NCBI GenBank assembly: GCA_964456285.1
Contig: CAYWBC010000002.1
Location: 16,999-80,998, forward strand
Direction: 5' to 3'
DNA from: an uncultured Bacteroidales bacterium
GTDB lineage: Bacteria; Bacteroidota; Bacteroidia; Bacteroidales; UBA10428
Length of the DNA stretch: 64,000 bases
Below are positions 3,701-24,377 of this stretch, one piece after another. The translations under genes and the position numbers were made by a program. The notes under the pieces are model-generated. The model worked only from the letters and a program-made list of their open reading frames with translations. It was not told the DNA's origin and searched no databases. Position 1 is the stretch's first letter; each line of letters starts with the position of its first letter.

Positions 3701-4249
3701 ATGAGCTTTAACATAAACGAATATTACACAGACATAAGTAAGGGAGATGTTCTTTTAGCCTACAAAGGAAGTATCACATCTGACTTAATTAATGAGGTAT
3801 TAGAAGCTGTTGAAGATAAGATGGAAGCTAATAAAGAAGAGGGAAAGACAAGGAAAAAGCTATACAATGTGCTTGTTGAAAGTCTCCAGAATTTATACCA
3901 TCATATTGAAGAAACACATGATGGAATAAACGAAGATCTAGATCCCAAATTTGGAATTCTTGTGGTTGAGAGAGAAAAAAATGGAGATTTTCGCGTTGTA
4001 ACCGGGAATTTTGTCGCCAATTCAAAAACTAAGTTTCTCAAAGAAAAAATTGATAAAATCAATTCATTGTCAAAAGATGAGTTGAAAGACATGTATAAAT
4101 TTATCTTAAATCATCAAAGAATCTCGGCTAAAGGTGGGGGAGGCCTGGGACTTGTTGATATTGCAAGGAAAACAGGTAAAAAAATGGTTTACAATTTCTA
4201 CCCCTACAACGATAAGTATGTATTTTTTGATTTAGCAATTCAGGTTTAA
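3701..4249 (+). CDS. SiaB-like small GHKL-type protein kinase (partner-switch kinase)
   Basis: 182 aa. Glycine-rich ATP-lid-like GGGGLGLVDIARKTG near the C-terminus. Size and pattern of the SiaB/DUF6272 family. Immediately upstream of a DUF1987 gene. Confidence 0.6.
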   Translation: MSFNINEYYTDISKGDVLLAYKGSITSDLINEVLEAVEDKMEANKEEGKTRKKLYNVLVESLQNLYHHIEETHDGINEDLDPKFGILVVEREKNGDFRVVTGNFVANSKTKFLKEKIDKINSLSKDELKDMYKFILNHQRISAKGGGGLGLVDIARKTGKKMVYNFYPYNDKYVFFDLAIQV

Positions 4250-4269: not shown

Positions 4270-4650
4270 ATGGAATCACTGATAATAGAAGGAAGTACAA
4301 AAACACCAGATGTTAATTTCGACATCGAAAATGGTGCTTTAGAAATAAAAGGGAGATCAATTCCTGAAAATTCAATTGAGTTTTACAAACCATTGGTCGA
4401 TTGGCTGGAAGAATATGCTCAGGATCCAAAGTCTAAGACTATTGTTAATGTGCATTTGGAATATTTCAATACGAGTTCTTCTAAATGTATACTTGATGTA
4501 TTCAAAAAACTTGAAGCCATTCATAAAAACAAATACGATGTGCAGATAAACTGGTATTATGAAGAAGATGATGAAGATATGCTGGAAGCAGGGGAAGATT
4601 ATGAATCAATTATTAGAGTTCCGTTCAAAATGATTGAAATTGTAGATTAA
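4270..4650 (+). CDS. DUF1987 / SiaC-like regulatory phosphoprotein
   Basis: 126 aa. DUF1987 N-terminal pattern TPDVNFDIENGALEIKGRSIPENSIEFYKPLVDWLEEY. Thr68 within YFNTSSSK. Acidic tail. Confidence 0.7.
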   Translation: MESLIIEGSTKTPDVNFDIENGALEIKGRSIPENSIEFYKPLVDWLEEYAQDPKSKTIVNVHLEYFNTSSSKCILDVFKKLEAIHKNKYDVQINWYYEEDDEDMLEAGEDYESIIRVPFKMIEIVD

Positions 4651-8400: not shown

Positions 8401-8514
8401 ACCTAAATAGGACTCAACAACAGTACGCCTGTCGCTTCCATCAGTATTGTATTCATCGGGCCTCGCAATAATTGCGAAAAGCTCCATGAGGGCTTGTAAA
8501 ATTTGTTCACTCAT
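5428..8514 (-). CDS. ABCG-type ABC transporter, fused ATPase-permease with ~270-aa N-terminal regulatory region and ~250-aa C-terminal extension
   Basis: Walker A GASGAGKST, signature ISGGQRKR, Walker B LFLDEPTSGL. ABC-2-type 6-TM domain. Extra C-terminal soluble region plus a final TM. N-terminal region is TerB-like and weakly FHA-like by eye. Confidence 0.85.
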   Translation of the reverse strand: MSEQILQALMELFAIIARPDEYNTDGSDRRTVVESYLGRILNQELVEGYLEIFDRFFARHQSLVNSRGVKRIGPDSVKILRICDQINKELTQKQKLIVVIHLFEFADSDAAEISKQEFEFIQTVADSFNVDTEEHDLIRDFTIKEVGNAPQSENILIIDENQDEKANPISKHLYSKHFKGELWLLKATTANIYLLRYLGNHELYLNGQLLQPFKVFVFNSGSSIRDHNIRPVYYSDIVTLFHTGQQESKITFRVNDISYRFKNGNMGLEPLSFVKDSGRLVGIMGASGAGKSTLLNVLNGTEKPTTGNITVNGINIHTEKNKIEGLIGYVSQDDLLIEELTVFQNLYYNAKLCFSNYKEAKLIATVDKMLQSLGLFEIKDVQVGSPLNKMISGGQRKRLNIALELIREPAVLFLDEPTSGLSSRDSENIMDLLKELSLKGKLVFVVIHQPSSDIFKMFDELLILDTGGYLIYDGDPIDSIVYFKSKTHYANYNESECNVCGNVNPEQIFNIVESNILDEYGKFTHRRKKSPKEWNKYFIEHTQKKQREEVKEVTELPNISFKIPNKIRQFLVFVKRDVLSKIANSQYLIINFLEAPLLAFILSFIIKYYNESDLNEVGYTLLGNSNLPVYIFMSVIVAIFMGLTISAEEIIKDRKILKREAFLNLSWSSYLISKIMVLLTLSAIQAALFVIVGNSIMEIKGMYLHYWIILFSCWVSANLMGLVISDSFKTVVTIYILIPFLVIPQIILSGVIVKYEKLNPSISSPNKIPFYGEIMTARWGYEALAVYQFTQNEYMSQFYPINKVMSIAEFKKYYWVKNLENKLDYINKYLEKDGDEAKIENYLRLLRNEIGDELKVNNRIEFEYLDQLYPDKIDAKIINATKEYIRKVNRVYITVYNRASDNRDKIIRSYQTSTENKETFIQQKRDYHNDRLAEFVENSNEPVRIVEFKGRLIQKIDPIYLDPESNFIKAHFYAAQKKFLGVYHPTFWVNTIVIWLMSIFFYILLYYRGLRRLLDAFENLNQRLNKKE

Positions 8515-8659: not shown

Positions 8660-10804
8660 ATGAAAAAACATTTTTTCCTGATACTTGTCTTTTTATTTAC
8701 GTCCTTATGTTCTTATAATCAATACTTTACTGTTGAAGACATTGAAACTGGCAGGAAATCCTACCTTAAACCTGCTGATTATGATAATCTTCAATGGAGC
8801 CATTCTGCAATGAGTTTAGTTTTTTCTCATGGCGATAGTCTTTTTGAAAAAGATATAAAAGGGAAGGATAAACATTTGTTATTGGATTTGAATCAACTGA
8901 ATGATATTCTATCTAAATACAATAAGAAAGCTCTTTCAGCTTTTCCCTCGATCAGAACTCTTTCTAAAAACAGAATCGCTTTTTTGAACTCTACTGATTA
9001 CTATGTTTTTGATCTTGAAAAAAAAGATATTGACAAATTATTTGAACTGCCTTCTGGTTCAGAAAATGCTTCTTTGAGCCCTGATACTAAGCACCTATGT
9101 TTCACTTGTGAGAACAATGTATGGATACAGGATGAGAGTGGAAATCAATTTCAGATTACCAGAGATTCTATTGATGGAATAACAAATGGAGAAATAGTTT
9201 ATAGGAATGAATTTGGAATAAAGGAAGGTATTTTTTGGTCGCCTCAGGGCAGTAGACTAGCTTTTTACAGAAGAGATCAGACACAGGTAAGCAAATACCC
9301 TTTGATTGATTATAATACCAAAATTGCTGAAACAAAATTTATCAGGTATCCATTGTCAGGAATGAAGAGCGAAGAGACGGATGTGTTGGTATATTCTATC
9401 GAGGATAAATCTGTTGTAAAACTACAGGTAAAGGGAGATCATGAACAATACCTGACAAACCTTAGCTGGACACCCGACGAAAAATCTATTTATTTACAGC
9501 AATTGAACAGAGAACAGGATAGAATGAAATTGAAAAGCTATAGCGCTCAAACTGGTGCTTTGATATCGGAATTGTTCACTGAAACAGATGATCGCTATAT
9601 TGAGCCCCTAAATTCTCTTGCTTTTTCGATGGTTTCACCTGGCGATTTTTTCTACCAGAGCGAGAAATCTGGGTACAACCATCTTTATTATTACAACTCC
9701 GAAAAAGAAACCCTGGAAAGTATTACTGAAGGAAGTTGGGAAGTCACAGAATTTCTTGGCTTTGATGAAAGTGAGCATGCTATTTATTTTATGGCAACAA
9801 AAGAGGGCCCTCTTGAAAATCATTGTTATCGGTTGACTAGGGACAATATGGAGATTACCAGATTGACAAACGAAGAAGGCAGTCATGAAGTTATATTCAA
9901 TAAGAATATGAGTTATTTTATTGATAGATTTTCCAATTATACTGTTCCGAACAAGATATTGGTATCAAAAAATGATGGAGAGTTAGTTCATGAATTGCTT
10001 GTTTCTGATAATCCCATCGAGGATTATTCACTTGGCAAAACTGAAAGAGGAACAATTTTGGCTGCTGATGATAGTACTGAATTATACTATCGTCTTATAA
10101 AACCAACAGATTTTGATCCTGAAAAGAAATATCCCTTGCTGATTTATGTTTATGGAGGATCTCATGTTCAACTACTTACCAATTCATGGCTTGACAGAAT
10201 AGAATATTTCCAGCAATACATGGCTCAACATGGATTTATTTCTTTCACTCTTGATTGCCGCGGGTCAGATAATAGGGGTAAAGATTTTGAAGATATTGTT
10301 TACCGGCAACTTGGAATTCCCCAACTTGATGATCAGATGGCAGGAGTTAATTATCTTAAATCGCTTCCATATATTGATACAAATCGCATTGGTGTGCATG
10401 GTTGGAGTTTCGGCGGGTACATGACTATATCAATGATGTTGAAGTATCCTGACGTCTTCAAAACAGGTGTCGCCGGTGGACCGGTAATTGACTGGCGGTA
10501 TTATGAGGTAATGTATACTGAGCGCTACATGGATAAACCCTCAGAAAATATTGATGGCTATAATAAGTCAGATTTGAAAAACTATGCTGACAAGCTTGCG
10601 GGAGATTTGCTAATTATTCATGGGGTTCAGGATCCGGTAGTTATCTGGCAGCAAAGCATTCTATTTTTACAGGCTTGTATTGATGCTGATGTATTTGTCG
10701 ATTATTTTATTTATCCAGGCCAGGAGCACAATGTTGCTGGAGAAGAAAGGGTTTATCTTACCCGGCAAATTACCAACTATTTCATTGAACATCTTTCACA
10801 TTAA
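8660..10804 (+). CDS. dipeptidyl-peptidase IV family S9B serine peptidase
   Basis: Signal peptide starts at the ATG at 8660 (MKKHFFLILVFLF). DPPIV N-terminal propeller region. Nucleophile GWSFGGYMT, IHGVQDPVV, GQEHNV. The track's start at 8597 is probably too early. Confidence 0.9.
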   Translation: MKKHFFLILVFLFTSLCSYNQYFTVEDIETGRKSYLKPADYDNLQWSHSAMSLVFSHGDSLFEKDIKGKDKHLLLDLNQLNDILSKYNKKALSAFPSIRTLSKNRIAFLNSTDYYVFDLEKKDIDKLFELPSGSENASLSPDTKHLCFTCENNVWIQDESGNQFQITRDSIDGITNGEIVYRNEFGIKEGIFWSPQGSRLAFYRRDQTQVSKYPLIDYNTKIAETKFIRYPLSGMKSEETDVLVYSIEDKSVVKLQVKGDHEQYLTNLSWTPDEKSIYLQQLNREQDRMKLKSYSAQTGALISELFTETDDRYIEPLNSLAFSMVSPGDFFYQSEKSGYNHLYYYNSEKETLESITEGSWEVTEFLGFDESEHAIYFMATKEGPLENHCYRLTRDNMEITRLTNEEGSHEVIFNKNMSYFIDRFSNYTVPNKILVSKNDGELVHELLVSDNPIEDYSLGKTERGTILAADDSTELYYRLIKPTDFDPEKKYPLLIYVYGGSHVQLLTNSWLDRIEYFQQYMAQHGFISFTLDCRGSDNRGKDFEDIVYRQLGIPQLDDQMAGVNYLKSLPYIDTNRIGVHGWSFGGYMTISMMLKYPDVFKTGVAGGPVIDWRYYEVMYTERYMDKPSENIDGYNKSDLKNYADKLAGDLLIIHGVQDPVVIWQQSILFLQACIDADVFVDYFIYPGQEHNVAGEERVYLTRQITNYFIEHLSH

Positions 10805-10833: not shown

Positions 10834-12711
10834 ATGATACTTCATTATTCCTCAAATCAAAATTATCATGAAACGGAAGTTGCGGGTACGCTAAATAATA
10901 AAAGGCTTTTTAAGTGGATAAAAGCTCAACTGACATTGTCCATTTACTTGATCCTCGCAGTAGTATTGCTTGCAACTTGCAACAATTCTCAATCTTCGAA
11001 TTCGGTAATAAAGTTGCCTGAGAATAAAGCAAATAATGTTAATCCTGACACACAACTTAAGCTTACTTTCTCCGGAGAGCCCATTTTAGGCAATTCAGGA
11101 AAGATTCGCATTTATGATGCTGCCGATGACAGACTTGTTGATTCACTGGATTTGAGCATCCCCCCGGGACCGACTACTCCGAATAGGAAAAGGGTTCCCT
11201 ATATTACTACTCCTTACGAGTATGGATCAGAATACTTTACCAACGCAAATATTAAACCGGGAACTCCATCGGGTGGTGCGCTTCCCAATCCTGATTCCTT
11301 TCAGCTTACAATCATCGGAGGTTTTACAGATGCATTTCATTTTTACCCTGTAATCATTGAAAATACTACTGCCAGGATATACTCTCACAACAATATTCTT
11401 GACTATAACAAAACCTATTACATACAAATCGATCCGGGAGTATTAATCCTTCCTGACAGTAGCTTCCCCGGGATCATGGGGAAAGAAGAATGGACATTTT
11501 CAACAAAAAAGGCACCCCCTCCTGCCAATGCAAGTTTACTCGTGGTATCAGGAGATGGCACAGGTGATTTTAGTACAGTACAGGGTGCTATCGATTTCAT
11601 CCCGGACCACAATCCCAATCGTATTACTATTTTTATAAAAAATGGAACTTATGAGGAGATCGTTTATTTCCGAAACAAGTCTAATGTTACATTTTTGGGT
11701 GAGGATATGGATAAAGTTATAGTATGTTACAAGAATAACGAAGTGTTTAATCCACATCCGGCAAATATAGCCACTAACGAATGGCCAGGTACTTTTCCTT
11801 CTCGTCGCGCAGCTTTTATGGGAGACAATTCAAGTGGCATTCACCTTGTCAATTTTACTATAAAATCTATCAACGAAGAGCCAGCTCAGGCTGAAGGACT
11901 TCTTCTGATGGGTCAGCAGAATATTATAAGCAATGTCATTATTGAAGGCTCAGGAGATGCCTTGCAGGTCAACGGCTCAGTATATCTGAGTCATACTAAA
12001 ATTACAGGATTAGGAGATAATGTGCTTGGACGCGGACCAGCGTTCTTCAATAATTGCAAACTCATTTCAACAGGCGGTCCTCATATGTGGATTCGAAACA
12101 CAGAGGCGAACCACGGTAATATCTTTCTAAATTGCAAATTTAAAATGGCTGGTCCAGGCAGCACATACATTGCCCGAACATCAGACAACAAAGGCAAGGG
12201 TTATCCATACTGCGAGTCGGTTTTACTCAATTGTGCCCTGGATGGCATTGATCCTGTGGGATGGGGTGTGGAAGGTAATAATACTTCCAACATTCATTAT
12301 TGGGAGTATAACAGTACCAATATAAGCGATGGTAAACCTATTGATGTTAGCCAACGGCATCCTATTTCCAGGCGATTGACTATGGAGAATGATTCAGCAA
12401 TTATTGCCAACTATAGTAATCCTACTTTTGTTCTTGGTGGCTGGACTCCAAAAATGGCTCCCATTATTCTTTCGCAACCGGATTCCAAAGAGGCTAAAAA
12501 TGGCCAGGCAATTGATTTCAGGGTAAAAGTGGCTGCCGTACCAGAGGCCACCTATCAATGGTTTAAAGATGGACAGATTATTGATGGTGAAACTAATTCA
12601 GTTCTAAGCATAGATTCTGTTAGTCCTGATGATGAAGCTAACTATAGTGTTTCTGTTAAGAACAACTCAGGAAAAGTGACAAGCCACATTGCAACTTTAG
12701 AGATTTTGTAA
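10834..12711 (+). CDS. CE8 pectinesterase-like lipoprotein with C-terminal Ig (I-set-like) domain
   Basis: LLATC lipobox. Pectinesterase pattern VVSGDGTGDFSTVQGAIDFIP...IFIKNGTYEE, QAEGLLL, GSGDALQ, GLGDNVLGRG. C-terminus YQWFKDGQIIDGETNSVLSIDSVSPDDEANYSVSVKN. Confidence 0.7.
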   Translation: MILHYSSNQNYHETEVAGTLNNKRLFKWIKAQLTLSIYLILAVVLLATCNNSQSSNSVIKLPENKANNVNPDTQLKLTFSGEPILGNSGKIRIYDAADDRLVDSLDLSIPPGPTTPNRKRVPYITTPYEYGSEYFTNANIKPGTPSGGALPNPDSFQLTIIGGFTDAFHFYPVIIENTTARIYSHNNILDYNKTYYIQIDPGVLILPDSSFPGIMGKEEWTFSTKKAPPPANASLLVVSGDGTGDFSTVQGAIDFIPDHNPNRITIFIKNGTYEEIVYFRNKSNVTFLGEDMDKVIVCYKNNEVFNPHPANIATNEWPGTFPSRRAAFMGDNSSGIHLVNFTIKSINEEPAQAEGLLLMGQQNIISNVIIEGSGDALQVNGSVYLSHTKITGLGDNVLGRGPAFFNNCKLISTGGPHMWIRNTEANHGNIFLNCKFKMAGPGSTYIARTSDNKGKGYPYCESVLLNCALDGIDPVGWGVEGNNTSNIHYWEYNSTNISDGKPIDVSQRHPISRRLTMENDSAIIANYSNPTFVLGGWTPKMAPIILSQPDSKEAKNGQAIDFRVKVAAVPEATYQWFKDGQIIDGETNSVLSIDSVSPDDEANYSVSVKNNSGKVTSHIATLEIL

Positions 12712-12862
12712 AACAAAGATGATAAACCAGAAAAGACTTCTTTTATCTTTGGGGTATAAAATTCGAGATAGGATTTTTAAAAACCTGTTATAAATTAGTA
12801 TTCAGCCTGTAGTCCTTTTTATTAGCATGTTGTATTTCATATAAAACCTAAATACTATTATT

Positions 12863-13777
12863 ATGAGAAAATACTTTTTCATTGGTCTTTGCCTGTTAAT
12901 AAATATTAATGCCTGTTTTGGTCAGGAAATTATACCTCTCTGGTCGGGAAATATTCCAAATCACCGGGAAACTGATGAAGTTGAAACTCAAAGAAATGAA
13001 AATATTTTATGGATTGAAAATGTGCAGGAACCAAGCCTTGAGATTTATCTGCCAACAAAACAAAATGCAACAGGAAAGGCTGTGGTGATATGTCCTGGAG
13101 GAGGATACCAGGGTTTGGCGTATGATTGGGAAGGTACCGACTTTGCAAAATTTTTAAATTCTAAAGGAATTGCAGCATTTGTTTTAAAATATAGATTACC
13201 AAAGTCAAAATCTATAATTTCAGGACACAAAGCTCCATTACAAGACGCCCAAAGAGCAATAAGGCTGGTTAGATTTAATTCTGAGAAATGGAATGTGTCC
13301 AGAAACCAAATCGGAATTATGGGTTTTTCGGCTGGTGGCCACTTAGCCTCAACATTGGGGACACATTACGATGATTATAAAGATTCTTTGCCGGACAATA
13401 TAGACTCATTGAGTGCACGACCTGATTTTATGATCTTGATATATCCGGTTATTACAATGAAGTCTATATATACACATGAAGGTTCAAGAAATAATTTGTT
13501 AGGTGATAAGCCTGAACAGGAATTAATAGATTTTTATTCAAATGAGCTTCATGTAAATAAAAATACTCCTCCGACTTTTATTGTTCATTCATCAGATGAT
13601 GACGTCGTTCCAGTAATGAATAGCATTTTATTTTATCAGGCTTTGGCAAAGGAGAAAATTTATTCAGAAATGCACATTTATCCGGAAGGAGGACATGGAT
13701 ATTCACTGGCAATAGGAAAGGGCCATTTACAAACATGGACTGATCGTCTTTCTGAATGGATTGAAAGTCTGAAATAA
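12863..13777 (+). CDS. secreted alpha/beta-hydrolase esterase (fold-3 / carbohydrate-esterase-like)
   Basis: Signal peptide. Oxyanion CPGGGY, nucleophile elbow GFSAGGHLAS, HSSDDDVVP, EGGHGY. Confidence 0.8.
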   Translation: MRKYFFIGLCLLININACFGQEIIPLWSGNIPNHRETDEVETQRNENILWIENVQEPSLEIYLPTKQNATGKAVVICPGGGYQGLAYDWEGTDFAKFLNSKGIAAFVLKYRLPKSKSIISGHKAPLQDAQRAIRLVRFNSEKWNVSRNQIGIMGFSAGGHLASTLGTHYDDYKDSLPDNIDSLSARPDFMILIYPVITMKSIYTHEGSRNNLLGDKPEQELIDFYSNELHVNKNTPPTFIVHSSDDDVVPVMNSILFYQALAKEKIYSEMHIYPEGGHGYSLAIGKGHLQTWTDRLSEWIESLK

Positions 13778-14040: not shown

Positions 14041-16629
14041 ATGAACTTAAATAATTTTACAATAAAGTCACAGGAAGTAATTCAGGAGGGATTCCTGATT
14101 GCTCAGGAGAATGGTAACCAGTCTGTTGAAACCGGTCACCTTTTGAAAGGATTATTGCTGAAAGGGAATGGAATAGCCGATTTTATCTTTAAAAAGGTAG
14201 GTGCAAACGGACCTGTGATTGAACAAGTTTTGGAAAAAATTCTGAATTCCTATCCTAAAGTTTCGGGAGGAGAGCAATATCTTTCTGCAAATGCATCCAA
14301 AGCTGTGCAGAATGCTTTAAACCTCAGTAAGAAAAAAGGGGATCAATATGTTTCAGTTGAAAACCTATTATCGGGGCTATTGACTGTAGGTGATGATGTT
14401 TCTCAATTGTTGAAAGACAACGGATTATCTAAAACTGAGGTTGATAAAGCGATTGAAGAATTGCGACAAAATGTTTCTGCAGATTCTGCTTCAGCTGAAG
14501 ATTCATACAATGCCCTTGATAAGTATGCAATTAATTTGAATGATAGTGCCCGAAAAGGAAAACTTGATCCTGTTATTGGTCGCGACGAAGAAATACGGAG
14601 AATTTTACAGATTCTCTCTCGAAGAACAAAGAACAATCCAATTTTAATAGGTGAACCAGGTGTAGGGAAAACAGCTATTGCTGAAGGCTTGGCGCATCGT
14701 ATTGTCTCTGGTGATGTGCCTGAAAACCTGAAATCGAAACAAGTATATTCATTGGATATGGGAGCCCTGATAGCCGGAGCAAAATACAAGGGAGAGTTTG
14801 AGGAAAGACTAAAAGGAGTGATAAAGGAAGTAATCCATTCTGATGGAGAGATCATTTTGTTTATCGATGAGATACATACGCTTGTAGGAGCCGGTAAATC
14901 TGAAGGAGCCATGGATGCAGCGAATATCTTAAAACCGGCACTTGCCAGGGGAGAATTAAGAGCAGTGGGAGCTACAACACTAGGTGAATATCAAAAGTAT
15001 TTTGAAAAAGATAAGGCCCTGGAAAGAAGGTTTCAGATAGTAAATGTTCAGGAACCAGACAATTTGAGTGCAATCTCAATTTTAAGAGGACTGAAAGAAA
15101 GGTATGAAACACATCATAAGGTACGTATTAAAGATGAAGCAATTATCGCTGCTGTTGAATTATCCTCAAGGTATATTACTGAAAGATTCTTGCCTGATAA
15201 AGCAATTGATTTGATTGATGAAGCTGCATCAAAAATGAGAATTGAGATGGATTCTCTTCCTCAGGAAATAGATGAGATCGAAAGAAAAATAAAACAAATT
15301 GAGATTGAAAGAGAGGCTTTGAAACGTGAGGGGGATAAAAATAAAATGGATGATTTGGCTAAAGAAATAGCAAATTTGGGAGAGGAAAGAGATAAAATGA
15401 GGGCAAAATGGAAGGCTGAAAAAGAAATAATAGAGAATATTCAAACTAACAAAGCGGCAATCGAAGAATATAAACTGGAAGCAGATCAGGCAGAAAGAGC
15501 AGGGGATTATGGCAAAGTTGCCGAATTAAGATACGGTAAAGTGAAAGAGGCTGAAGATAATATTGAAAAATTGAAAATCCAGTTAAATGCAAAGCAAAAA
15601 GACCAGATAATGATCAAGGAGGAGGTAACTTCAGAAGATATTGCTGAAATAGTATCACGCTGGACAGGGATCCCGGTAAGCAAAATGCTTGAAACCGAGA
15701 AAGTTAAGCTTCTGAATCTTGAGAAACAATTGCACGAAAGAGTGGTAGGGCAAAATGAAGCAATACAAGCAGTAGCTGATGCTGTTAGAAGAAGCAGAGC
15801 CGGACTTCAGGATGAATCCAAACCTATCGGATCTTTCATTTTTCTGGGTACTACAGGTGTTGGAAAAACTGAATTGGCCAAAGCATTGGCAGAAGTTTTA
15901 TTCAATGATGATAACCTTATTACCCGAATTGATATGTCTGAATATCAGGAAAGACATTCGGTATCGCGATTAATTGGCGCACCTCCTGGATATGTTGGTT
16001 ATGACGAAGGAGGTCAATTAACTGAATCGGTCAGAAGAAAACCTTATTCCGTAGTACTTCTTGATGAGATCGAAAAAGCACATCCTGATGTATTTAATAT
16101 TCTGCTCCAGGTCCTTGATGACGGTCGACTGACTGATAATAAGGGTAGGGTAGTGAATTTTAAGAATACAATTATTATAATGACTTCCAATATAGGGTCG
16201 CATCTAATTCAGGAGAAACTGAATAATTCTTCTGCAAAAAATAGAAGCGCATTGCTGGAGGAAATAAAAAAACAGGTATTTGAACTTATGCGTAAAATGA
16301 TTCGTCCTGAATTTCTGAACAGAATAGATGAAGTGATTATGTTCACTCCTTTAAATGCAGAAGAGATCAAAGATATTGTACGACTACAGATAAATCAAAC
16401 ACAGAAAAAACTGGATAAAATCCAGGTGAAAATTAAAGTCACTGAAGAGGCTATAGACCTGATAAGCAAGGTAGGTTTTGACCCGCTCTTTGGCGCACGG
16501 CCAATAAAAAGAATTATTCAGAGGGAACTTCTCAATAAGCTATCAAAGGAAATATTGGCAAATACAATATCGAAAACTAAGACAATTGTGGTGGATAGAG
16601 AAAAGGATGAGCTGATTTTAAAAAATTAA
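14041..16629 (+). CDS. clpB: ATP-dependent chaperone/disaggregase ClpB
   Basis: 862 aa. Clp N domain, two AAA+ modules (GEPGVGKTAI, GTTGVGKTEL), long coiled-coil middle domain. No ClpP-binding loop recognised. Confidence 0.97.
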   Translation: MNLNNFTIKSQEVIQEGFLIAQENGNQSVETGHLLKGLLLKGNGIADFIFKKVGANGPVIEQVLEKILNSYPKVSGGEQYLSANASKAVQNALNLSKKKGDQYVSVENLLSGLLTVGDDVSQLLKDNGLSKTEVDKAIEELRQNVSADSASAEDSYNALDKYAINLNDSARKGKLDPVIGRDEEIRRILQILSRRTKNNPILIGEPGVGKTAIAEGLAHRIVSGDVPENLKSKQVYSLDMGALIAGAKYKGEFEERLKGVIKEVIHSDGEIILFIDEIHTLVGAGKSEGAMDAANILKPALARGELRAVGATTLGEYQKYFEKDKALERRFQIVNVQEPDNLSAISILRGLKERYETHHKVRIKDEAIIAAVELSSRYITERFLPDKAIDLIDEAASKMRIEMDSLPQEIDEIERKIKQIEIEREALKREGDKNKMDDLAKEIANLGEERDKMRAKWKAEKEIIENIQTNKAAIEEYKLEADQAERAGDYGKVAELRYGKVKEAEDNIEKLKIQLNAKQKDQIMIKEEVTSEDIAEIVSRWTGIPVSKMLETEKVKLLNLEKQLHERVVGQNEAIQAVADAVRRSRAGLQDESKPIGSFIFLGTTGVGKTELAKALAEVLFNDDNLITRIDMSEYQERHSVSRLIGAPPGYVGYDEGGQLTESVRRKPYSVVLLDEIEKAHPDVFNILLQVLDDGRLTDNKGRVVNFKNTIIIMTSNIGSHLIQEKLNNSSAKNRSALLEEIKKQVFELMRKMIRPEFLNRIDEVIMFTPLNAEEIKDIVRLQINQTQKKLDKIQVKIKVTEEAIDLISKVGFDPLFGARPIKRIIQRELLNKLSKEILANTISKTKTIVVDREKDELILKN

Positions 16630-16940: not shown

Positions 16941-19900
16941 ATGTTGAAAAGAATAAGTAATAAATTTTTAATTCGAAATAATCGATTCATTGGGATACTG
17001 TTTACCTTGATTATGGGATTAATATTGCTTATATCAATTCCACTTCATGGCCAGTATAAAAATATGCAATTCGAATCGTTTAACGAAACGAATGGTTTAT
17101 CAAACAATAATGTAAATTGTATATTGAAAGATGCTGAAGGTTTCATCTGGGTAGGTACCGATAATGGCTTAAATCGATTTGATGGATACAATTTTACATC
17201 TTATGTTAATAATTCTGACGACTCAACCAGTCTGATCCATAATCATGTGCTGACTTTATTTCTGGCAAGTGATTCTACGCTTTGGGTAGGAACGCAATAT
17301 GGCATGTGCCGTTTCCAGAAGGAATATAATAATTTCGTCCAGATTCATGAGAGGTATATAGATGGTTTTACTAGAGGGTTTTTTGAAGATCAGAATGGAC
17401 AAGTGTATGCGGTACTCGACCGGGGAGAAATTTTTTCTTTAAAGGATAATAGACTTACCTCAAAACATAATGCAAATATATATGCACACTGTTACCTAAA
17501 AGGCAATGATGATATTCACTGGTTTGGAGTAGAAGACGGAATATGCAAATATTACGCCAGTAAAGACTCTCTGGTAAATTTTTCTTTAAGAAGATATAAT
17601 TCCGGGGAGAAAGTTGCTGTTTTTGCTCTTCAGGAATATAATAATAAATTATGGATAGGTACTCGTGGGTTTGGAGTATTCCTATTTGATTTGAGTTCAA
17701 ATCAAATCACACATCTTGATGAGAGTCTCGATTTTATTAAAACCATCGAGAAAGACAATCATGGATTAATATTTATTGGCAATACAATTGGATTGAAAGT
17801 TTATAACCAGGATTACAAAATGCTGGGTAGCTATAAGCCATTTAAAAAGTATAATCAGCAGGAAATTGATAATTCTGTTGAGGCTATATATTCAGATAAA
17901 CAGGGTAATTTATGGCTGGGTGTAAAATTCAGAGGTATTCAGATGGCTTATCCTCAAAAAGGTTTCCACAGTCTTAAGGAAGCCTTAGTTGCAAAAGTTT
18001 CACAAGAAGTGACTGTTGCTTCTGTACTGGCCGATGATGACCAGAACATTTGGTTAGGCTCCTTTAATAATGGTATTTTAAAACTAAACCTAAGAAGTGG
18101 TAAATCGGAGTATATTCCCTGCGCTGAAGGTGGATCCTCTGGTCTTCAATGTGGGACTGTATTTGAATTATTTCGTGATAAGAATTTGAACATCTGGATT
18201 GGAAGCTATTTTGGAGGCTTGCAAAAATTAATTCCGGAAACAAAGCAGGTAATCCATTATTCTCTTAACCATATTGACAAAAATGAACAGAGCTTAAAGG
18301 ATATCCGATCGATATGTGAGGATTATGAAGGGAATTATTGGATTGCTCCTCAAGGCAATGGCTTGATAAAATGGAATATGAATACAGGTGAATATGAACA
18401 GTTCCTGAATAATTACAACGACTCGTCAAGTCTTTGTAGTAATTGGGTTTTTCATGTAATTTGTGATAGTATGGGCTATATCTGGTGTGCCACCTCCAGT
18501 GGTCTTTCAGTGACTCGCAATAATGGGAAAACCTTTGAGAATTATTATCACAAATCTAATAATTCATCAAAACTCCTGAGCAATGAGGTTTTTACTGTAT
18601 TTGAGGATTCAAATAATCAAATATGGGTGGGAACCAGGAAAGGAATTAGTAAGTACAGAAAAGAATCGAATGATTTTATTCATTACACTTCAAAAGATGG
18701 TTTAATCAATGATTTTATCTGTGCCATTCAGGAAGATCATAATGGTTTATTATGGATATCAACTATGGAAGGTCTTTCCTGTTTTAATCCAAAAACAATT
18801 GAATTTAAAAATTATGATATGAGTGATGATTTCCCCAGCAATGAATTTATGGAAAATTCCTGTGCAATCACTCCATCAGGATATTTAATCTTTGGCGGCA
18901 TAAATGGCGGAATATGGTTTCATCCCGACTCCATTACTGAAAATAAGTTTCCTCCTAAGGTAAAACTAACTGATTTTAAGATCTTTAATCAGTCTGTTCC
19001 AATCAAGCCCAACGACAAAAATGCAGTACTAAATAAAGATATACAATACACCAGGAACCTGACGATTGATCACAAGCAAAAAATGATATCATTTGATTTT
19101 GTTGCTCTTAGTTTTGTGCATCCTGAGCAAAATAAATATGCATACAAACTGGAAAATTTTGATAATGATTGGATTAACGCAAATGACAAACGTGAAGCTA
19201 CTTATACCAGCTTGCCCCCTGGGAAATATATTTTTCGGGTCAAAGCAGCCAATAATGATGGGTATTGGAACAACGAAGGAGCGTCCGTTCAAATCACGGT
19301 ATTACCTTCCCCATGGAAGACCTGGTGGTTCCGTCTAATTGTAATTATTCTATTTCTTTCTATTACATTTTTAATTTATTATTTACGCGTTCAAAGAATG
19401 CGTGCCATTAACCTTACATTGGAAGACCTTGTGGATCAAAGGACCAAAGAACTTCAGACAATGAATATGAAACTTCAGGAACTCAATGCTACAAAAGACA
19501 AGCTTTTTTCCATAATTGGTCATGATCTCATGAACCCAATCAATACAATAAATGGATTCTCAGAATTATACATCAATTCATATCAAAAACTTTCTGATGA
19601 GAAAAAATGGAGTTACATGAGTCATATCCATACAGAAGTGAATAAAACAATTGATTTGCTGGATGGACTGCTTAACTGGGCAAGATCGAAAAGTGGGACG
19701 CTAGCCTTTAATCCCAAAAAAATTAACCTACACAATTTGATCGAGGTTAATATTACTTTTAATAAGCAAGCAGCGGACAAGAAGAAAATACGAATACAAA
19801 GTGAAATAGACGAAGAATATATTATTGCTCTGGGCGATGAGAATATGATTAATACAGTACTGCGAAATCTGATTTCCAATGCCATAAAATTTACTCCAAA

Positions 19901-20186
19901 TAAAGGAAGTATTTCAATCAAATGCGGTCCATTTTCGGAGTCTGGATTTGTTTTACTAGAGGTTTCCGATACAGGTGTTGGTATTCTTTCGAAGGATATT
20001 GACTGCCTTTTTAGGATTGATAGTAATAAAACTACTAAAGGGACAGAAGGTGAAACAGGCACGGGTTTGGGATTGATTCTTTGTAAGGAATTTGTAGAAA
20101 AAAATAACGGAACCATATGGATAGAAAGTGAAGTAGAGAAAGGTTCAAGTTTCTTTTTTACATTACCTGTCGTTGCGCCTAATTAA
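16941..20186 (+). CDS. sensor histidine kinase with tandem beta-propeller (Reg_prop) + Y_Y_Y periplasmic sensor; no receiver or DNA-binding domain
   Basis: N-terminal TM. Many W.GT..GL propeller repeats. Y_Y_Y region YAYKLENFDNDW...GKYIFRVKA. TM WWFRLIVIILFL. H-box FSIIGHDLMNPIN. HATPase GTGLGL. Ends right after the ATPase domain. Confidence 0.9.
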   Translation: MLKRISNKFLIRNNRFIGILFTLIMGLILLISIPLHGQYKNMQFESFNETNGLSNNNVNCILKDAEGFIWVGTDNGLNRFDGYNFTSYVNNSDDSTSLIHNHVLTLFLASDSTLWVGTQYGMCRFQKEYNNFVQIHERYIDGFTRGFFEDQNGQVYAVLDRGEIFSLKDNRLTSKHNANIYAHCYLKGNDDIHWFGVEDGICKYYASKDSLVNFSLRRYNSGEKVAVFALQEYNNKLWIGTRGFGVFLFDLSSNQITHLDESLDFIKTIEKDNHGLIFIGNTIGLKVYNQDYKMLGSYKPFKKYNQQEIDNSVEAIYSDKQGNLWLGVKFRGIQMAYPQKGFHSLKEALVAKVSQEVTVASVLADDDQNIWLGSFNNGILKLNLRSGKSEYIPCAEGGSSGLQCGTVFELFRDKNLNIWIGSYFGGLQKLIPETKQVIHYSLNHIDKNEQSLKDIRSICEDYEGNYWIAPQGNGLIKWNMNTGEYEQFLNNYNDSSSLCSNWVFHVICDSMGYIWCATSSGLSVTRNNGKTFENYYHKSNNSSKLLSNEVFTVFEDSNNQIWVGTRKGISKYRKESNDFIHYTSKDGLINDFICAIQEDHNGLLWISTMEGLSCFNPKTIEFKNYDMSDDFPSNEFMENSCAITPSGYLIFGGINGGIWFHPDSITENKFPPKVKLTDFKIFNQSVPIKPNDKNAVLNKDIQYTRNLTIDHKQKMISFDFVALSFVHPEQNKYAYKLENFDNDWINANDKREATYTSLPPGKYIFRVKAANNDGYWNNEGASVQITVLPSPWKTWWFRLIVIILFLSITFLIYYLRVQRMRAINLTLEDLVDQRTKELQTMNMKLQELNATKDKLFSIIGHDLMNPINTINGFSELYINSYQKLSDEKKWSYMSHIHTEVNKTIDLLDGLLNWARSKSGTLAFNPKKINLHNLIEVNITFNKQAADKKKIRIQSEIDEEYIIALGDENMINTVLRNLISNAIKFTPNKGSISIKCGPFSESGFVLLEVSDTGVGILSKDIDCLFRIDSNKTTKGTEGETGTGLGLILCKEFVEKNNGTIWIESEVEKGSSFFFTLPVVAPN

Positions 20187-20399
20187 AATGTTGCCAATAA
20201 GAAAACTTATTCAAAGAGAACTGCTTAATTAACTTTCAGAAGTAATATTAGCAAATAATATTCCAAAAAATAGAAAGATAATAATTGGTACAGAAAACAA
20301 TGAGAGTACTTTATGCAATTAAGAACTTGGAGTATAAAAAACGAATCCTTATTTATGGTAAAGGGCTAAATGAAAAATGCTGAAAATTTGTATTTTTTC

Positions 20400-20738
20400 T
20401 TAATTGAAACTTTTTAAACAATCATCCTGAGTTTCATAAAGATCAAATACGTTGTGCAACTGTAAAAGTTTAAACAGATCCATTACTTCTTTTTTGATGT
20501 TACAGATTTTAAACTGTCCGTGGTTACTGTTTGCGGTTTTCATTATAGACAGGAAAACGCCAAAACCGGAGCTGTCAATAAATTTAATGCCTTCCAAATC
20601 AAGGGCTAATTTAGTGCCGGGCTTATTAAACATATTTTTCAGCTGTTCTTTTACTGGCTCAACAATCAAAGCATTAAAACGGTCTACCTCATTGAATTTT
20701 ACCACAATAACGTTGTTAACTTTCTCAGTTTTAAGCAT
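20400..20738 (-). CDS. STAS-domain anti-sigma-factor-antagonist-like protein
   Basis: 112 aa. SpoIIAA-like pattern with the conserved phospho-serine motif FIDSSGFGVF. Confidence 0.85.
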   Translation of the reverse strand: MLKTEKVNNVIVVKFNEVDRFNALIVEPVKEQLKNMFNKPGTKLALDLEGIKFIDSSGFGVFLSIMKTANSNHGQFKICNIKKEVMDLFKLLQLHNVFDLYETQDDCLKSFN

Positions 20739-20750
20739 AAGTAGAAATAT

Positions 20751-21104
20751 TTAAATGTAAATATCAATGTTATTAATTACTTCATTTAGCTCCTCAACTG
20801 CCTCTCTTGTTACATCTTTGAACTTTTCAATAAACTCAGGATACGTTTCAACTTCCTCTCCAGCCTTCGTAAGTTCTTCAAATGATTTAAGATCCTTTGC
20901 CAAATCCTCCAACCCCATGATTGAGATGGATGATTTTGCTTTGTGTGCAAGTCTTCCTAATTGCTCATAATCCTTGTTGTTGTATAACTCTTTCATTCCA
21001 AGATTGAATTCAATAACCTGAGATTTAAAGATAGTGATCATTTCAATGATCAGCTCTTTATTCCCAGCCGACATATTTTTCAAATAAGTGAGGTCGATTT
21101 TCAT
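20751..21104 (-). CDS. stand-alone Hpt (histidine phosphotransfer) domain protein
   Basis: 117 aa. Hpt signature LAHKAKSSISIMGLEDLA (HxxKxS...G). 12-nt gap to the downstream STAS gene. Confidence 0.8.
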   Translation of the reverse strand: MKIDLTYLKNMSAGNKELIIEMITIFKSQVIEFNLGMKELYNNKDYEQLGRLAHKAKSSISIMGLEDLAKDLKSFEELTKAGEEVETYPEFIEKFKDVTREAVEELNEVINNIDIYI

Positions 21105-21199
21105 TTAAAAATTATACTTGTGAATAAATTCACCTCTAAATTAATTTATTTTTTTATTTTTAATAAAATTATGACCTCAATATAACAAAATCAAGCTTT

Positions 21200-21215
21200 T
21201 TGCAGTATACTGCAA
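21200..21215. promoter_or_regulatory. perfect 16-bp palindrome TTGCAGTATACTGCAA (candidate operator)
   Basis: Exact self-complementarity, checked base by base. Ends 16 nt upstream of the TPR gene ATG (21231), in the 126-bp divergent region shared with the Hpt-STAS operon. Confidence 0.4.
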
Positions 21216-21230
21216 TAAAATACTTAACAA

Positions 21231-22286
21231 ATGATCAATCGAATCTTTATTTTAACTTTCTTTTTTTGCATTTCAGCCACTTTGCTTGCTCAAACAAGTG
21301 AATTTGACTATGAGAATTATCGCAATCAGAGAATAGCAGAAAGATTATACAACACTGCTGTTGAGGCTGTGCATGCGAAAGATTATTATGGAGCTCTGTT
21401 CTATCTTGACAGCATTGTCAGACTTCAACCTAATTTTGCTGAGGCATATATTGAGAGAGGAAAAATTTACTATGTGAAAGAAAGAAAAAGTGATGCGTTG
21501 ATGGAATTTCAGGAAGTTTTAAACTTTGAACCCAATAATGGAGAAGCATTATTTTATAAAGCCTACGTTAAATTCACACAGGATACTTCAAGTGTCGGAC
21601 CATCTGACTTCGATATGGCAATACAGAACAATTATACTCTTCCACATGCATATTATTATCGCGGCCTCATGAAATTACTTGATAAAAAATACAATGATGC
21701 CATTGCTGATTTCAGTTTGGCCATCCAAAAGAAAGCTGATTATGCTAAAGCTTACCACGATCGAGGAACTGCAAAGCGTATGCTTGGTGATTATCAGGGT
21801 GCGATATACGATTACAGACTTGCCATAACCTATGACAATGATTTGTTAATGGCTTACATCAATATGGGATCAACAAAGAAAAATCTGGGAGATTTTCAGG
21901 GAGCAGAACAAGATTATACTGTTGCTATAAATATAGACTCTTCAAGTTTTATCCCATACAACAACAGGGGAGGAGCCAGATATATTCTTGGCAATCTTGA
22001 GGAAGCAGAAGCTGATTTTAAAAAGGCTTATGAATTGAATCCGGAGTCTCCGTCAGTAATGTGCAATATGGGCAATGTTTTGGCCAAGACGGGAGATTAT
22101 GAATCAGCTATTGAATGGTACAATAAATCCCTGGAACTGGATCCTAATTATAATATTTCATTTTTAAACAGGGGATTAACTTACGAATTGCTTGGAATGC
22201 TTACTGAAGCTTGCGCAGATTGGGAGCTTGCAGCTGAACTGGGATTGGAAGAAGCCAATGAATACCTAAAAGAGTGTAACAAATAA
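21231..22286 (+). CDS. secreted tetratricopeptide (TPR) repeat protein
   Basis: Signal peptide. About 8 TPR units (repeated A..Y..G........A..D...AI..(D/N)P....A pattern). Confidence 0.85.
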   Translation: MINRIFILTFFFCISATLLAQTSEFDYENYRNQRIAERLYNTAVEAVHAKDYYGALFYLDSIVRLQPNFAEAYIERGKIYYVKERKSDALMEFQEVLNFEPNNGEALFYKAYVKFTQDTSSVGPSDFDMAIQNNYTLPHAYYYRGLMKLLDKKYNDAIADFSLAIQKKADYAKAYHDRGTAKRMLGDYQGAIYDYRLAITYDNDLLMAYINMGSTKKNLGDFQGAEQDYTVAINIDSSSFIPYNNRGGARYILGNLEEAEADFKKAYELNPESPSVMCNMGNVLAKTGDYESAIEWYNKSLELDPNYNISFLNRGLTYELLGMLTEACADWELAAELGLEEANEYLKECNK

Positions 22287-22298
22287 CCCGACAGGATC

Positions 22299-24377
22299 AT
22301 GCCTAAAAAAATAATACTATTTTCCATACTGTTTTTATTTGCAATTGTTTCTTCAGAAATCTATGCTCAGATCAGTCCTTTAAAGATTAAAAAAAAGGAG
22401 TTTAGAAAACAAGAATATGGGTTTAAGGATGCCTGGATGAATATTAAGGATGGTAATTACTACTATTCGAAAGGTTTGGGATCATACAGACTGGCCAGGG
22501 AGAGTTATTTAAAAGCTTATGGATACAACCCGGATAACCCGGAGTTGAATTATATGATTGGCAGATGCTATTTATTTAGCGATAATAAATTTGAATCCAT
22601 AAAATACATTGAGAAGGCCTATAAACTTGAACCAGATGTGCATTTTGATATTCATCTTATGCTGGGAATGGCTTTCCATCAGATTCTTGAATTTGATAAA
22701 GCAATTGACGAATACAATTACTTCATAAACAAACTTCACCCTAAGTTCAGGCCGGATTATCAATCCAAGGTTGATTTGTTTATACAGCAGTGCAAAAATG
22801 GAAAAATACTGGCTGCTGAGCCAAAAAGGGTGGTGATTAACAATTTAGGGCCAACAGTAAACTCAGTCTTTGATGAGTATGGACCTATGATTAGTGCCGA
22901 TGGCAATACCATGTATTTCACTTCACGAAGGAAATACTCTAAGAAAAGTAAAAAGAGCATAATCGATGATAAATTTTTTGAAGACGTTTATTCTACTCAA
23001 CTGGATAATAACTCATGGACAAGGGCCAGGCGTGTAGATGCAAAAGTTACCGGGAAAACAAACACTACAAATGTTGCTGCTGTTGGCATTTCTCCTGATA
23101 AGCAAAGCTTGTATATTTATAAAGGAAAAAATAATAGTGGTGATTTATATGTATGCAGAATGAAAAAAGGGGAATGGACTGCACCGAAATCACTTTCGAA
23201 ATTTAATTCTAAGCATCGTGAGGTTTCTATGTGTATTTCTTCTGATGAATCTACTTTGTACTTTGTTTCGAGCAATACCAAAACTGGTTATGGAGGAACT
23301 GATATTTACATAAGCACAAAAAATATCAAAGGGAAATGGCAAAAACCTGTAAATGCAGGAAATGTGATCAATACATTTTCTGATGAACTGGGAGTAAGCC
23401 TGGGAGCAAATGATTCAGTATTGTATTTTAGTTCAAAGGGACACAACTCTATGGGTGGTTATGATGTGTTTCAGAGTTCGCTCAGCAATGTCGGATTGTG
23501 GTCAAAACCTATAAATCTAGGATATCCTATAAATACTCCTAACGATGATATTTTTTATTCGGATATTCCTGATGGAAAAACCGGATACTATTCTTCGAAC
23601 AGGGAGTCTGGACTTGGAGGAATGGATATTTATAAGGTGATTTACCTGGGAGCAGAAAAAGATATGTTTGTTGGTGATGCGGAAGATCTTATTGCAGGAG
23701 CAAAAATTCCTTACGATAATATTTATTTTGTCCCTACTCAAAAACTTAATGTAGATACAGCCATCTTGATGAGGGGATTCATCAACGATTCTGAAAATCA
23801 AAATCCAATTGTTGCTAAGATTGAAATTATTGATTCGGATAGAAGTCAGGTTGTAGCTACAACTATGTCTGATGCTACTGGTAATTACTCTGTTAAAATA
23901 CCGGAATCAAAACAATATGGTGTTGAGATCATTGCTACAGGCTATTTACTCTACCTTGATATGGTTGATCTTTCAATGAACACTTACGATGAGGTTGTAG
24001 TGAAGAATTTCTTGCTTGACAGGGTAGAAGTTGGAGCAAAGGTGATTCTTAAGAACATTTATTTCGAAACCGGAAAGTCTACTCTTAAAACCGAATCTCA
24101 TGCCAGTCTGGATAATGTTGTTAAGCTTCTTGAGACCAATCCATCCATTCGAATTGAAATCTCTGGCCATACTGATAATGTCGGAAGTTTAAGTGTGAAC
24201 ACCAAGCTGTCAAATAACAGGGCAAAAGCAGTTGTGAATTACCTGGTAAGCAAAGGTGTCGCTGAAAGCAGACTTGAATACAAAGGTTATGCATACTCGC
24301 AGCCCATTGCGCCTAACAACACTTCTGAAGGAAGAGCGCAAAACAGAAGGGTAGAGTTTAAGGTACTTAGTAAGTAG
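22299..24377 (+). CDS. OmpA-family peptidoglycan-associated protein with N-terminal TPR, TolB-like PD40 propeller and CarboxypepD_reg-like domains
   Basis: Signal peptide. PD40-like repeats (ST.YF.S.R....GG.DIY). C-terminal OmpA domain (IEISGHTDNVGS...NRAKAV..YL...GV...R......G...P.A.N.T.EGRAQNRRVEF). Confidence 0.9.
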   Translation: MPKKIILFSILFLFAIVSSEIYAQISPLKIKKKEFRKQEYGFKDAWMNIKDGNYYYSKGLGSYRLARESYLKAYGYNPDNPELNYMIGRCYLFSDNKFESIKYIEKAYKLEPDVHFDIHLMLGMAFHQILEFDKAIDEYNYFINKLHPKFRPDYQSKVDLFIQQCKNGKILAAEPKRVVINNLGPTVNSVFDEYGPMISADGNTMYFTSRRKYSKKSKKSIIDDKFFEDVYSTQLDNNSWTRARRVDAKVTGKTNTTNVAAVGISPDKQSLYIYKGKNNSGDLYVCRMKKGEWTAPKSLSKFNSKHREVSMCISSDESTLYFVSSNTKTGYGGTDIYISTKNIKGKWQKPVNAGNVINTFSDELGVSLGANDSVLYFSSKGHNSMGGYDVFQSSLSNVGLWSKPINLGYPINTPNDDIFYSDIPDGKTGYYSSNRESGLGGMDIYKVIYLGAEKDMFVGDAEDLIAGAKIPYDNIYFVPTQKLNVDTAILMRGFINDSENQNPIVAKIEIIDSDRSQVVATTMSDATGNYSVKIPESKQYGVEIIATGYLLYLDMVDLSMNTYDEVVVKNFLLDRVEVGAKVILKNIYFETGKSTLKTESHASLDNVVKLLETNPSIRIEISGHTDNVGSLSVNTKLSNNRAKAVVNYLVSKGVAESRLEYKGYAYSQPIAPNNTSEGRAQNRRVEFKVLSK

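Follow-up and report, generated by a model that had tools for sequence, protein, structure and literature searches.

An Hpt-STAS gene pair conserved in Bacteroidales

A 64-kb stretch of DNA from an uncultured Bacteroidales bacterium (contig CAYWBC010000002.1; hereafter the window, in whose numbering all positions are given) contains two small genes arranged in tandem on the minus strand. The upstream gene (20751..21104) encodes a single-domain histidine phosphotransfer (Hpt) protein of 117 amino acids (aa), and the downstream gene (20400..20738) a single-domain STAS protein of 112 aa, of the SpoIIAA/RsbV type. Both are read in the same frame, and the stop codon of the first is separated from the start of the second by a spacer of 12 nt (20739..20750, minus strand), implying that the two are co-transcribed. 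A third gene, on the plus strand (16941..20186), converges on the pair and encodes a classical, non-hybrid sensor histidine kinase of 1081 aa with Reg_prop and Y_Y_Y domains. An earlier note, made from the sequence alone, had singled out these three genes, and its coordinates and domain assignments were recovered in full with the open reading frame (ORF) list, Pfam, and NCBIfam. The gap of 12 nt could be read directly from the sequence, and the convergent arrangement of the kinase and STAS genes held as well, with a stop-to-stop distance of 213 nt instead of the 214 bp given at the time. On its other side, the Hpt gene is divided from a divergent TPR gene by 126 bp (21105..21230), presumed to be the promoter region of the pair. 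A scan of this region for sigma-70 consensus promoters, a consensus that does not apply to Bacteroidota, did not rise above shuffled background, and a terminator scan likewise gave background levels only.

The larger ORFs of the window were scanned with Pfam, and all ORFs of at least 60 aa with local profiles and phmmer. Domain profiles, the check proposed in the earlier note, placed both small proteins above the curated cutoffs. The Hpt protein matched PF01627 over residues 21-104 (32.3 bits, cutoff 24.6) and contains the AHKAKSS motif, with the phospho-accepting His54 in LAHKAKSS. The STAS protein matched PF01740 (57.5 bits, cutoff 22.6) and the anti-sigma-factor antagonist family TIGR00377 (66.4 bits, cutoff 53.45), and contains a DSSG motif, with Ser56 in IDSSGF as the candidate phospho-serine. 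Its best solved relative is TM1442 (E 9.5e-11), and Ser56 aligns with the phospho-serine position in the DS motif loop of both TM1442 and SpoIIAA. A sequence search with the Hpt protein against solved structures gave no significant match, and weak matches were found to the Hpt ends of TorS, LetS, BarA, and ArcB.

The two genes form a genuine Bacteroidales operon that is co-oriented, tightly spaced, and strongly conserved. This was established in two sets of loci: 80 loci encoding an Hpt relative, taken from one genome per species (50-79% Hpt identity), and 80 metagenome contig loci, for which the STAS protein served as the seed. A STAS gene was found directly downstream of the Hpt gene, on the same strand, in 77 of the 80 genome loci; 2 of the exceptions are contig ends, and the third is a locus without STAS (L066). 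Among the metagenome contigs, 69 of 80 carried a solo Hpt gene followed by STAS and 1 a fused kinase-Hpt gene followed by STAS, the remainder being 5 contig ends and 5 loci without an intact Hpt gene. The gap between the two genes is mostly 3-20 nt in these orthologous loci, with a 4-nt overlap in some. Loss of the adjacency in related genomes had been named in the earlier note as a finding that would speak against its proposal; instead, the adjacency proved to be a stable feature of both sets.

The STAS protein is the better conserved partner, with 63-91% identity against 50-79% for the Hpt protein. In total, 254 Hpt homologs were found, nearly all of about 117 aa among the 120 matches listed. 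All 141 Hpt domains compared, whether solo, split, or fused, have His54, Lys57, and Ser59, and all 81 STAS orthologs have Asp55, Ser56, Gly58, and Phe59.

Relation of the pair to CHASE8 kinase operons

Homology places the Hpt protein as the split-off carboxyl-terminal domain of a family of CHASE8 kinase-receiver-Hpt proteins. A search with a profile of the kinase retrieved a large family from Bacteroidales and Marinilabiliales; among its 120 best members listed, about half (~755 aa) carry a fused Hpt domain at their carboxyl terminus, and 56 of these 120 align, through their last ~110 aa, with residues 3-113 of the window Hpt protein. The best of these matches (E 2e-33, 51% identity) is far above the generic 32-bit Pfam match to Hpt. 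The earlier note had stressed that the Hpt protein lacks a receiver to serve as its donor; the homology supplies a CHASE8 kinase-receiver-Hpt family, encoded elsewhere in Bacteroidota in the same operon, directly 5' of STAS.

Several related loci still contain such an operon in more complete form. In L066 and L068, genes for a YfiR-like DUF4154 protein and a CHASE8-HAMP-HisKA-HATPase-receiver kinase lie just 5' of the Hpt gene, on the same strand. L087 contains a five-gene operon encoding a PD40-OmpA protein (815 aa), a DUF4154 protein, a CHASE8 kinase-receiver protein (633 aa), Hpt, and STAS, in which the Hpt gene overlaps the kinase gene. The fused form is found in Salinivirga cyanobacteriivorans (L090; CP013118.1), where a PD40-OmpA-787 protein and a YfiR-like protein are followed by a CHASE8-kinase-receiver-Hpt protein (757 aa), whose gene is overlapped by the STAS gene by 4 nt; L091 and L093 share this operon order. 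The STAS proteins of these three loci are 39-43% identical to that of the window (E 1e-26 to 1e-31). Altogether, the YfiR-like DUF4154 protein and the CHASE8-HAMP sensor are encoded together in L066, L068, L081, L087, and L090-L093, and the YfiR-like protein belongs to the NCBIfam TOL_0243 family (137 bits, cutoff 125). Variants that encode the kinase and Hpt with no adjoining STAS gene occur in L081, L089, and L092. The operon is modular in other respects as well: a sub-family of the CHASE8 kinases (760-800 aa; P0151-P0170 and L092:10001-12286) has two receivers in place of a receiver and an Hpt domain, and in L092 this two-receiver kinase is followed by a separate Hpt gene, with no STAS gene.

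The flanking genes show that the window and the Salinivirga-type genomes have these genes at the same chromosomal spot. L090 and the window share GcvT, ComB, TPR/PD40/OmpA-681, and a 359-aa protein beyond the divergent promoter; GcvT and ComB are common to L085, L090, L091, and the window, and genes for a class-V aminotransferase, a 2-hydroxyacid dehydrogenase, and a DUF1015 protein to L085, L091, and the window. In the Salinivirga-type genomes, the genes for PD40-OmpA, the YfiR-like protein, and the CHASE8 kinase-receiver occupy the position that corresponds to the 126-bp region at 21105..21230. Because the spot and its flanks are shared, the window arrangement can be described as the Salinivirga type minus PD40-OmpA, the YfiR-like protein, and the kinase-receiver part. 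Local profiles for DUF4154 and CHASE8 found no such genes in the window, matching only the core of the unrelated Reg_prop kinase. The Hpt-STAS pair thus looks like the leftover tail of an ancestral envelope-sensor kinase operon of Bacteroidota, which would have encoded, in this order, PD40-OmpA, a periplasmic YfiR-like protein, a CHASE8-HAMP-HisKA-HATPase-receiver-Hpt kinase, and STAS; in the lineage of the window, the Hpt domain would have become a gene of its own. In a neighbor-joining tree, 78 of 79 solo Hpt proteins form one pure clade; this is suggestive of a single origin of the orphaned state, the tree being short and unbootstrapped.

Taken together, these loci form an evolutionary series, from fused through split and orphaned to Hpt-less, which makes the pathway testable in a cultured relative, S. 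cyanobacteriivorans. The comparison also yields a candidate input, in the form of a YfiR-like/CHASE8 envelope sensor with an OmpA-family partner.

The neighboring kinase and other genes of the window

The convergent kinase consists of a periplasmic double-propeller/Y_Y_Y sensor, two membrane helices, and a HisKA-HATPase core. Pfam detected Reg_prop (1.6e-38), Y_Y_Y (1.6e-21), and HATPase_c (1.5e-22), along with a weak HisKA match (21.9 bits, under the cutoff of 26.9), and the last ~240 residues align to many NCBIfam kinase cores. Neither a receiver nor a helix-turn-helix (HTH) domain was detected by Pfam, and a local receiver profile was also blank. HATPase_c ends at residue 1077 of 1081, four residues from the stop; given this ending and the blank receiver profile, the protein is best classified as a classical sensor histidine kinase and not as a hybrid two-component system (HTCS) regulator. 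It has the Reg_prop propellers, Y_Y_Y domain, and HisKA-HATPase core of HTCS proteins, but not their fused receiver and AraC HTH.

The earlier note had described this kinase as stripped of its output. An exhaustive search retrieved 65,045 relatives (E <1e-30), and 100 of the best 150 cluster representatives are at most 1210 aa long with no receiver domain. The proteins nearest to it thus most often consist of a sensor and a kinase core. We therefore rejected the idea of a truncated or decapitated HTCS. The kinase itself is the sole member of its own 90%-identity cluster, and presumably signals to an unlinked response regulator.

The association between this kinase and the gene pair, which the same note had drawn, did not survive comparison with other genomes. 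No full-length homolog of the kinase was found near the pair in any of the 80 genome loci or the 80 metagenome loci. In the closest relatives (L001-L003; 79% Hpt identity), the kinase is absent and ClpB abuts STAS, and ClpB directly follows STAS on the opposite strand in 70 of the 80 genome loci. In the window, the kinase gene is positioned exactly between ClpB (14041..16629, plus strand), elsewhere the immediate convergent neighbor of STAS, and the STAS gene itself. We therefore read it as a lineage-specific insertion between clpB and STAS that, being absent from all related loci, convergent, and receiver-less, lies outside the Hpt-STAS unit. For scans of genomes this is a caution, as the eye-catching large neighbor proved to be a lineage-specific insertion. 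Compared with L001-L003, the window has two further extra genes, for a pectinesterase-Ig protein and a BD-FAE esterase (10834-13777, plus strand), between DPP4 and ClpB. Since all three are carbohydrate-flavored, the kinase may belong with these two genes rather than with Hpt-STAS.

Pfam assigned the larger ORFs of the window to housekeeping genes and a SusC-type locus. Divergent from the pair lie genes for a 351-aa TPR protein (Pfam TPR; 21231..22286, plus strand), found at this position and in this orientation in 51 of the 80 genome loci, and for a 692-aa TPR/PD40/CarboxypepD_reg/OmpA envelope protein (22299..24377, plus strand), present in 47 of 80 and also in Salinivirga L090. The latter is related to CHU_0125 and PorE, scoring under both NCBIfam cutoffs. 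A different phospho-switch pair, separate from Hpt-STAS and not covered by the earlier note, is encoded 16 kb away on the plus strand: a SiaB-family Ser/Thr kinase (3701-4249; NF038262, 160 bits, cutoff 85; PDB 6KKO, E 1e-13) and a SiaC-type phosphoprotein (4270-4650; PF09345). These 2 genes are found within 10 kb of Hpt-STAS in 41-43 of the 80 genome loci; that the SiaB-like kinase might act on the STAS protein is pure speculation. Between ClpB and SiaB/SiaC, in 52 of 80 loci as in the window, lies a gene for a 1028-aa protein in which a TerB-like N-terminal region is fused to an ABC ATPase and an ABC-2 membrane domain (5428-8514, minus strand). Two large plus-strand ORFs, of 1505 aa (42664-47181) and 433 aa (57727-59028), were not matched by any Pfam family at E ≤1e-5; the latter is flanked by genes for an MFS sugar transporter and a GH3 glycosidase, 3' of a SusC-like receptor gene.

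Possible signaling by the pair and comparison with known systems

No receiver, PP2C/SpoIIE phosphatase, RsbW/SpoIIAB-like kinase, or sigma factor was found in the 64-kb window by the Pfam, profile, and phmmer scans, in line with the earlier statement that none lies nearby. The neighborhoods of ~170 related loci were queried with phmmer, using approximate sequences of RsbU, SpoIIAB, and CheY, and with a local receiver profile; Pfam tables for L081-L092 agree with the phmmer outcome. Two PP2C proteins were seen, both 8-9 kb from the pair: a TPR-SpoIIE protein in L028 (8 kb), and, in L091, a Reg_prop/Y_Y_Y/PAS/SpoIIE phosphatase adjoining SiaB-SiaC. Otherwise, sporadic receivers were found among the neighborhoods.

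The earlier note knew of no characterized case of the junction between phosphorelay and partner switch that the pair suggests, but junctions of this kind are already known. In Pseudomonas, HptB phosphorylates the receiver of HsbR, and phospho-HsbR dephosphorylates HsbA at Ser56 (PMC5085249, PMC8256260), while in Vibrio fischeri SypF controls SypE, which in turn controls SypA (PMC12369376). The characterized junctions from phosphorelay to STAS always run via a receiver-PP2C adaptor. Taking the logic of these two systems as a model, the receiver domains of one or more hybrid kinases encoded elsewhere would phosphorylate the Hpt protein at His54. From there the phosphoryl group would pass to the receiver of another protein encoded elsewhere, an HsbR/SypE/RsbY-type Ser phosphatase or kinase, which would set the phosphorylation state of Ser56. 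Depending on that state, the STAS protein would switch binding partners, binding or releasing a target that need not be an anti-sigma factor. The ancestral input may have been envelope or periplasmic stress, by analogy with YfiB/YfiR/YfiN. We consider this route through an HsbR-like adaptor the likeliest reading, with about an even chance of being correct.

Several observations weigh against it. With the approximate queries mentioned above, neither a receiver-PP2C gene nor an RsbW-type gene turned up within 10 kb of the pair among the ~170 loci, and characterized systems usually have the STAS gene beside that of its kinase or phosphatase. In a mirror-tree comparison, the distances of Hpt and STAS correlate with r 0.53, falling to a partial r of 0.14 when ClpB is controlled for, which indicates no excess co-evolution; the Hpt protein tracks the divergent TPR and OmpA proteins better (partial r 0.65-0.72), probably as a rate effect. 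In metagenome loci L101, L105, and L140, the STAS gene lies next to the TPR gene and the Hpt gene is gone, and in L095 an insertion of ~4 kb divides the Hpt gene into two parts (5536-5694 and 9661-9858). As some lineages keep STAS without an intact Hpt, the function of STAS is not strictly dependent on this Hpt protein. The insertion in L095 carries genes for a cytochrome c, DUF5777, YceI, and tRNA_anti-like proteins, and the STAS gene of that locus is followed by a gene for a single-domain receiver of 143 aa.

Part of this evidence could instead mean that the adjacency is merely inherited, the pair being a frozen remnant that is co-transcribed but shares no signaling. The Hpt protein would then serve other hybrid kinases and response regulators, and the STAS protein would either have a partner switch of its own or work as a binding protein that is not phosphorylated. 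In favor of this reading, synteny is strong across the whole block, so that neighbors are kept whatever their function; the distances of Hpt and STAS correlate no more closely than background; and each partner is found without the other, STAS in the four loci with a lost or disrupted Hpt gene, and kinase-Hpt without an adjoining STAS gene in L066, L081, L089, and L092. However, the spacing of 3-20 nt or overlap has been kept in ~150 loci across roughly 40-90% protein identity, and the link recurs in both fused and split form in a different taxonomic order, the Marinilabiliales, so that the spacing is kept across two orders and in three gene architectures. Moreover, characterized systems do connect Hpt proteins with STAS proteins, and we regard a purely inherited adjacency as rather unlikely. 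A circuit confined to the locus, as implied by the earlier note, in which the Reg_prop/Y_Y_Y kinase, with its own output domains lost, feeds Hpt-STAS via an orphan receiver, has in its favor a proximity of 213 nt, convergent and in one genome only, and the fact that no cognate regulator adjoins the kinase. As the kinase has no receiver domain, it could not itself donate to the Hpt protein. It also shows the architecture usual for its family, and the specific homology of the Hpt protein is to the Hpt domain of the CHASE8 kinases, which are another family. The lack of conservation (0 of 160 loci with a full-length kinase homolog) largely refutes this circuit, which we consider highly improbable.

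A different possibility is that the coupling is direct and needs no adaptor, with a kinase or Hpt protein of the YfiR/CHASE8 type signaling straight to STAS as its cytoplasmic output partner. This could happen through phospho-dependent binding between Hpt and STAS, or through phosphorylation of Ser56 by the GHKL domain of the kinase, which is homologous to RsbW/SpoIIAB; the pair in the window would then be the self-sufficient core of a new junction, with other hybrid kinases now feeding it. STAS is the sole cytoplasmic protein that the full operons encode beside the kinase, with no terminal response regulator there, and its gene lies directly against, or overlaps, the end of the kinase gene that encodes Hpt, as with the 4-nt overlap in L090. 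The dearth of PP2C and RsbW-type genes next to the pair would also be expected, and the adjacency has outlasted the loss of the kinase. On the other hand, we know of no precedent for transfer from His to Ser, nor for a HisKA-type kinase that phosphorylates a STAS protein. The mirror-tree result, without special co-evolution of Hpt and STAS, and the lineages with STAS but no intact Hpt also speak against direct coupling. Adaptors that are unlinked from their partners are common, an example being rbaY, which lies apart from rbaVW in Rhodobacter (PMC3999984). Direct coupling is therefore clearly unlikely in our estimate, and the route through an HsbR-like adaptor encoded elsewhere is the reading we retain.

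Well over 100 species of Bacteroidales have a STAS phospho-switch protein linked in this way to a phosphorelay. Partner-switch signaling is, to our knowledge, essentially unstudied in Bacteroidota, and no description of the Hpt-STAS arrangement in this phylum was found in the literature searched. What is unusual here is an Hpt-STAS operon without an adaptor, its descent from an operon of a YfiR-like/CHASE8 unorthodox kinase and STAS, and its occurrence in a large share of the uncultured Bacteroidales.

On the sensory side, the closest comparison is with YfiBNR, which consists of the OmpA/Pal-like lipoprotein YfiB, the periplasmic repressor YfiR, and the CHASE8 sensor YfiN. The full operons in relatives of the window likewise combine an OmpA-family protein, a YfiR-like DUF4154 protein, and a CHASE8-HAMP membrane sensor, but their output is kinase-receiver-Hpt plus STAS and not a GGDEF cyclase, and in place of the small YfiB they have a PD40 protein of ~800 aa. 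The window lacks all three of these sensor genes. Such a change of output has parallels, as the YfiR/YfiN core is modular, and its divergent homologs can have a kinase or an Hpt domain as output (PMC3375315, PMC4887326). The layout of kinase core, receiver, and C-terminal Hpt is shared between the CHASE8 family and the tripartite kinases ArcB, BarA, and TorS. Unlike in these, the Hpt protein of the window is free-standing, and the kinase-receiver part is missing at the locus.

Other routes from a phosphorelay to a STAS protein, those of CrsR-CrsA and RsbK-RsbY-RsbV, likewise pass through a receiver-domain protein, CrsR and RsbY, respectively. In SypF-SypE-SypA and RbaY-RbaV, a phosphorelay, by way of an Hpt domain or a hybrid kinase, governs the serine phosphorylation of the STAS protein (PMC12369376, PMC3999984). 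SypE and RbaY are the receiver-domain phosphatase or kinase adaptors of these systems, and none was found at the Hpt-STAS locus. The nearest counterpart is HptB-HsbR-HsbA (PA3345-PA3347 in P. aeruginosa; hsbAR-hptB in P. putida), in which, as in the window, a single-domain Hpt protein and a STAS protein are encoded in one cluster. HsbA, like the STAS protein described here, is of the anti-sigma-antagonist type with its phospho-serine at position 56, a candidate position in our case. There, orphan hybrid kinases feed the Hpt protein, and the phosphorylation of the STAS protein is the output (PMC5085249, PMC8256260, bioRxiv 10.1101/2024.11.25.625174). The two arrangements differ in that Pseudomonas encodes the receiver-PP2C-kinase HsbR in the same cluster, whereas the ~170 loci have no gene of that kind within 10 kb of the pair, and in that the Hpt protein of the window, unlike HptB, appears to derive from the C-terminus of a CHASE8 kinase, in a different phylum, the Bacteroidota. 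If an adaptor is absent, the pair would represent a new coupling of His-Asp relays to Ser-phospho switches; if one is present, it would be the Bacteroidota counterpart of HptB-HsbR-HsbA, with its genes dispersed.

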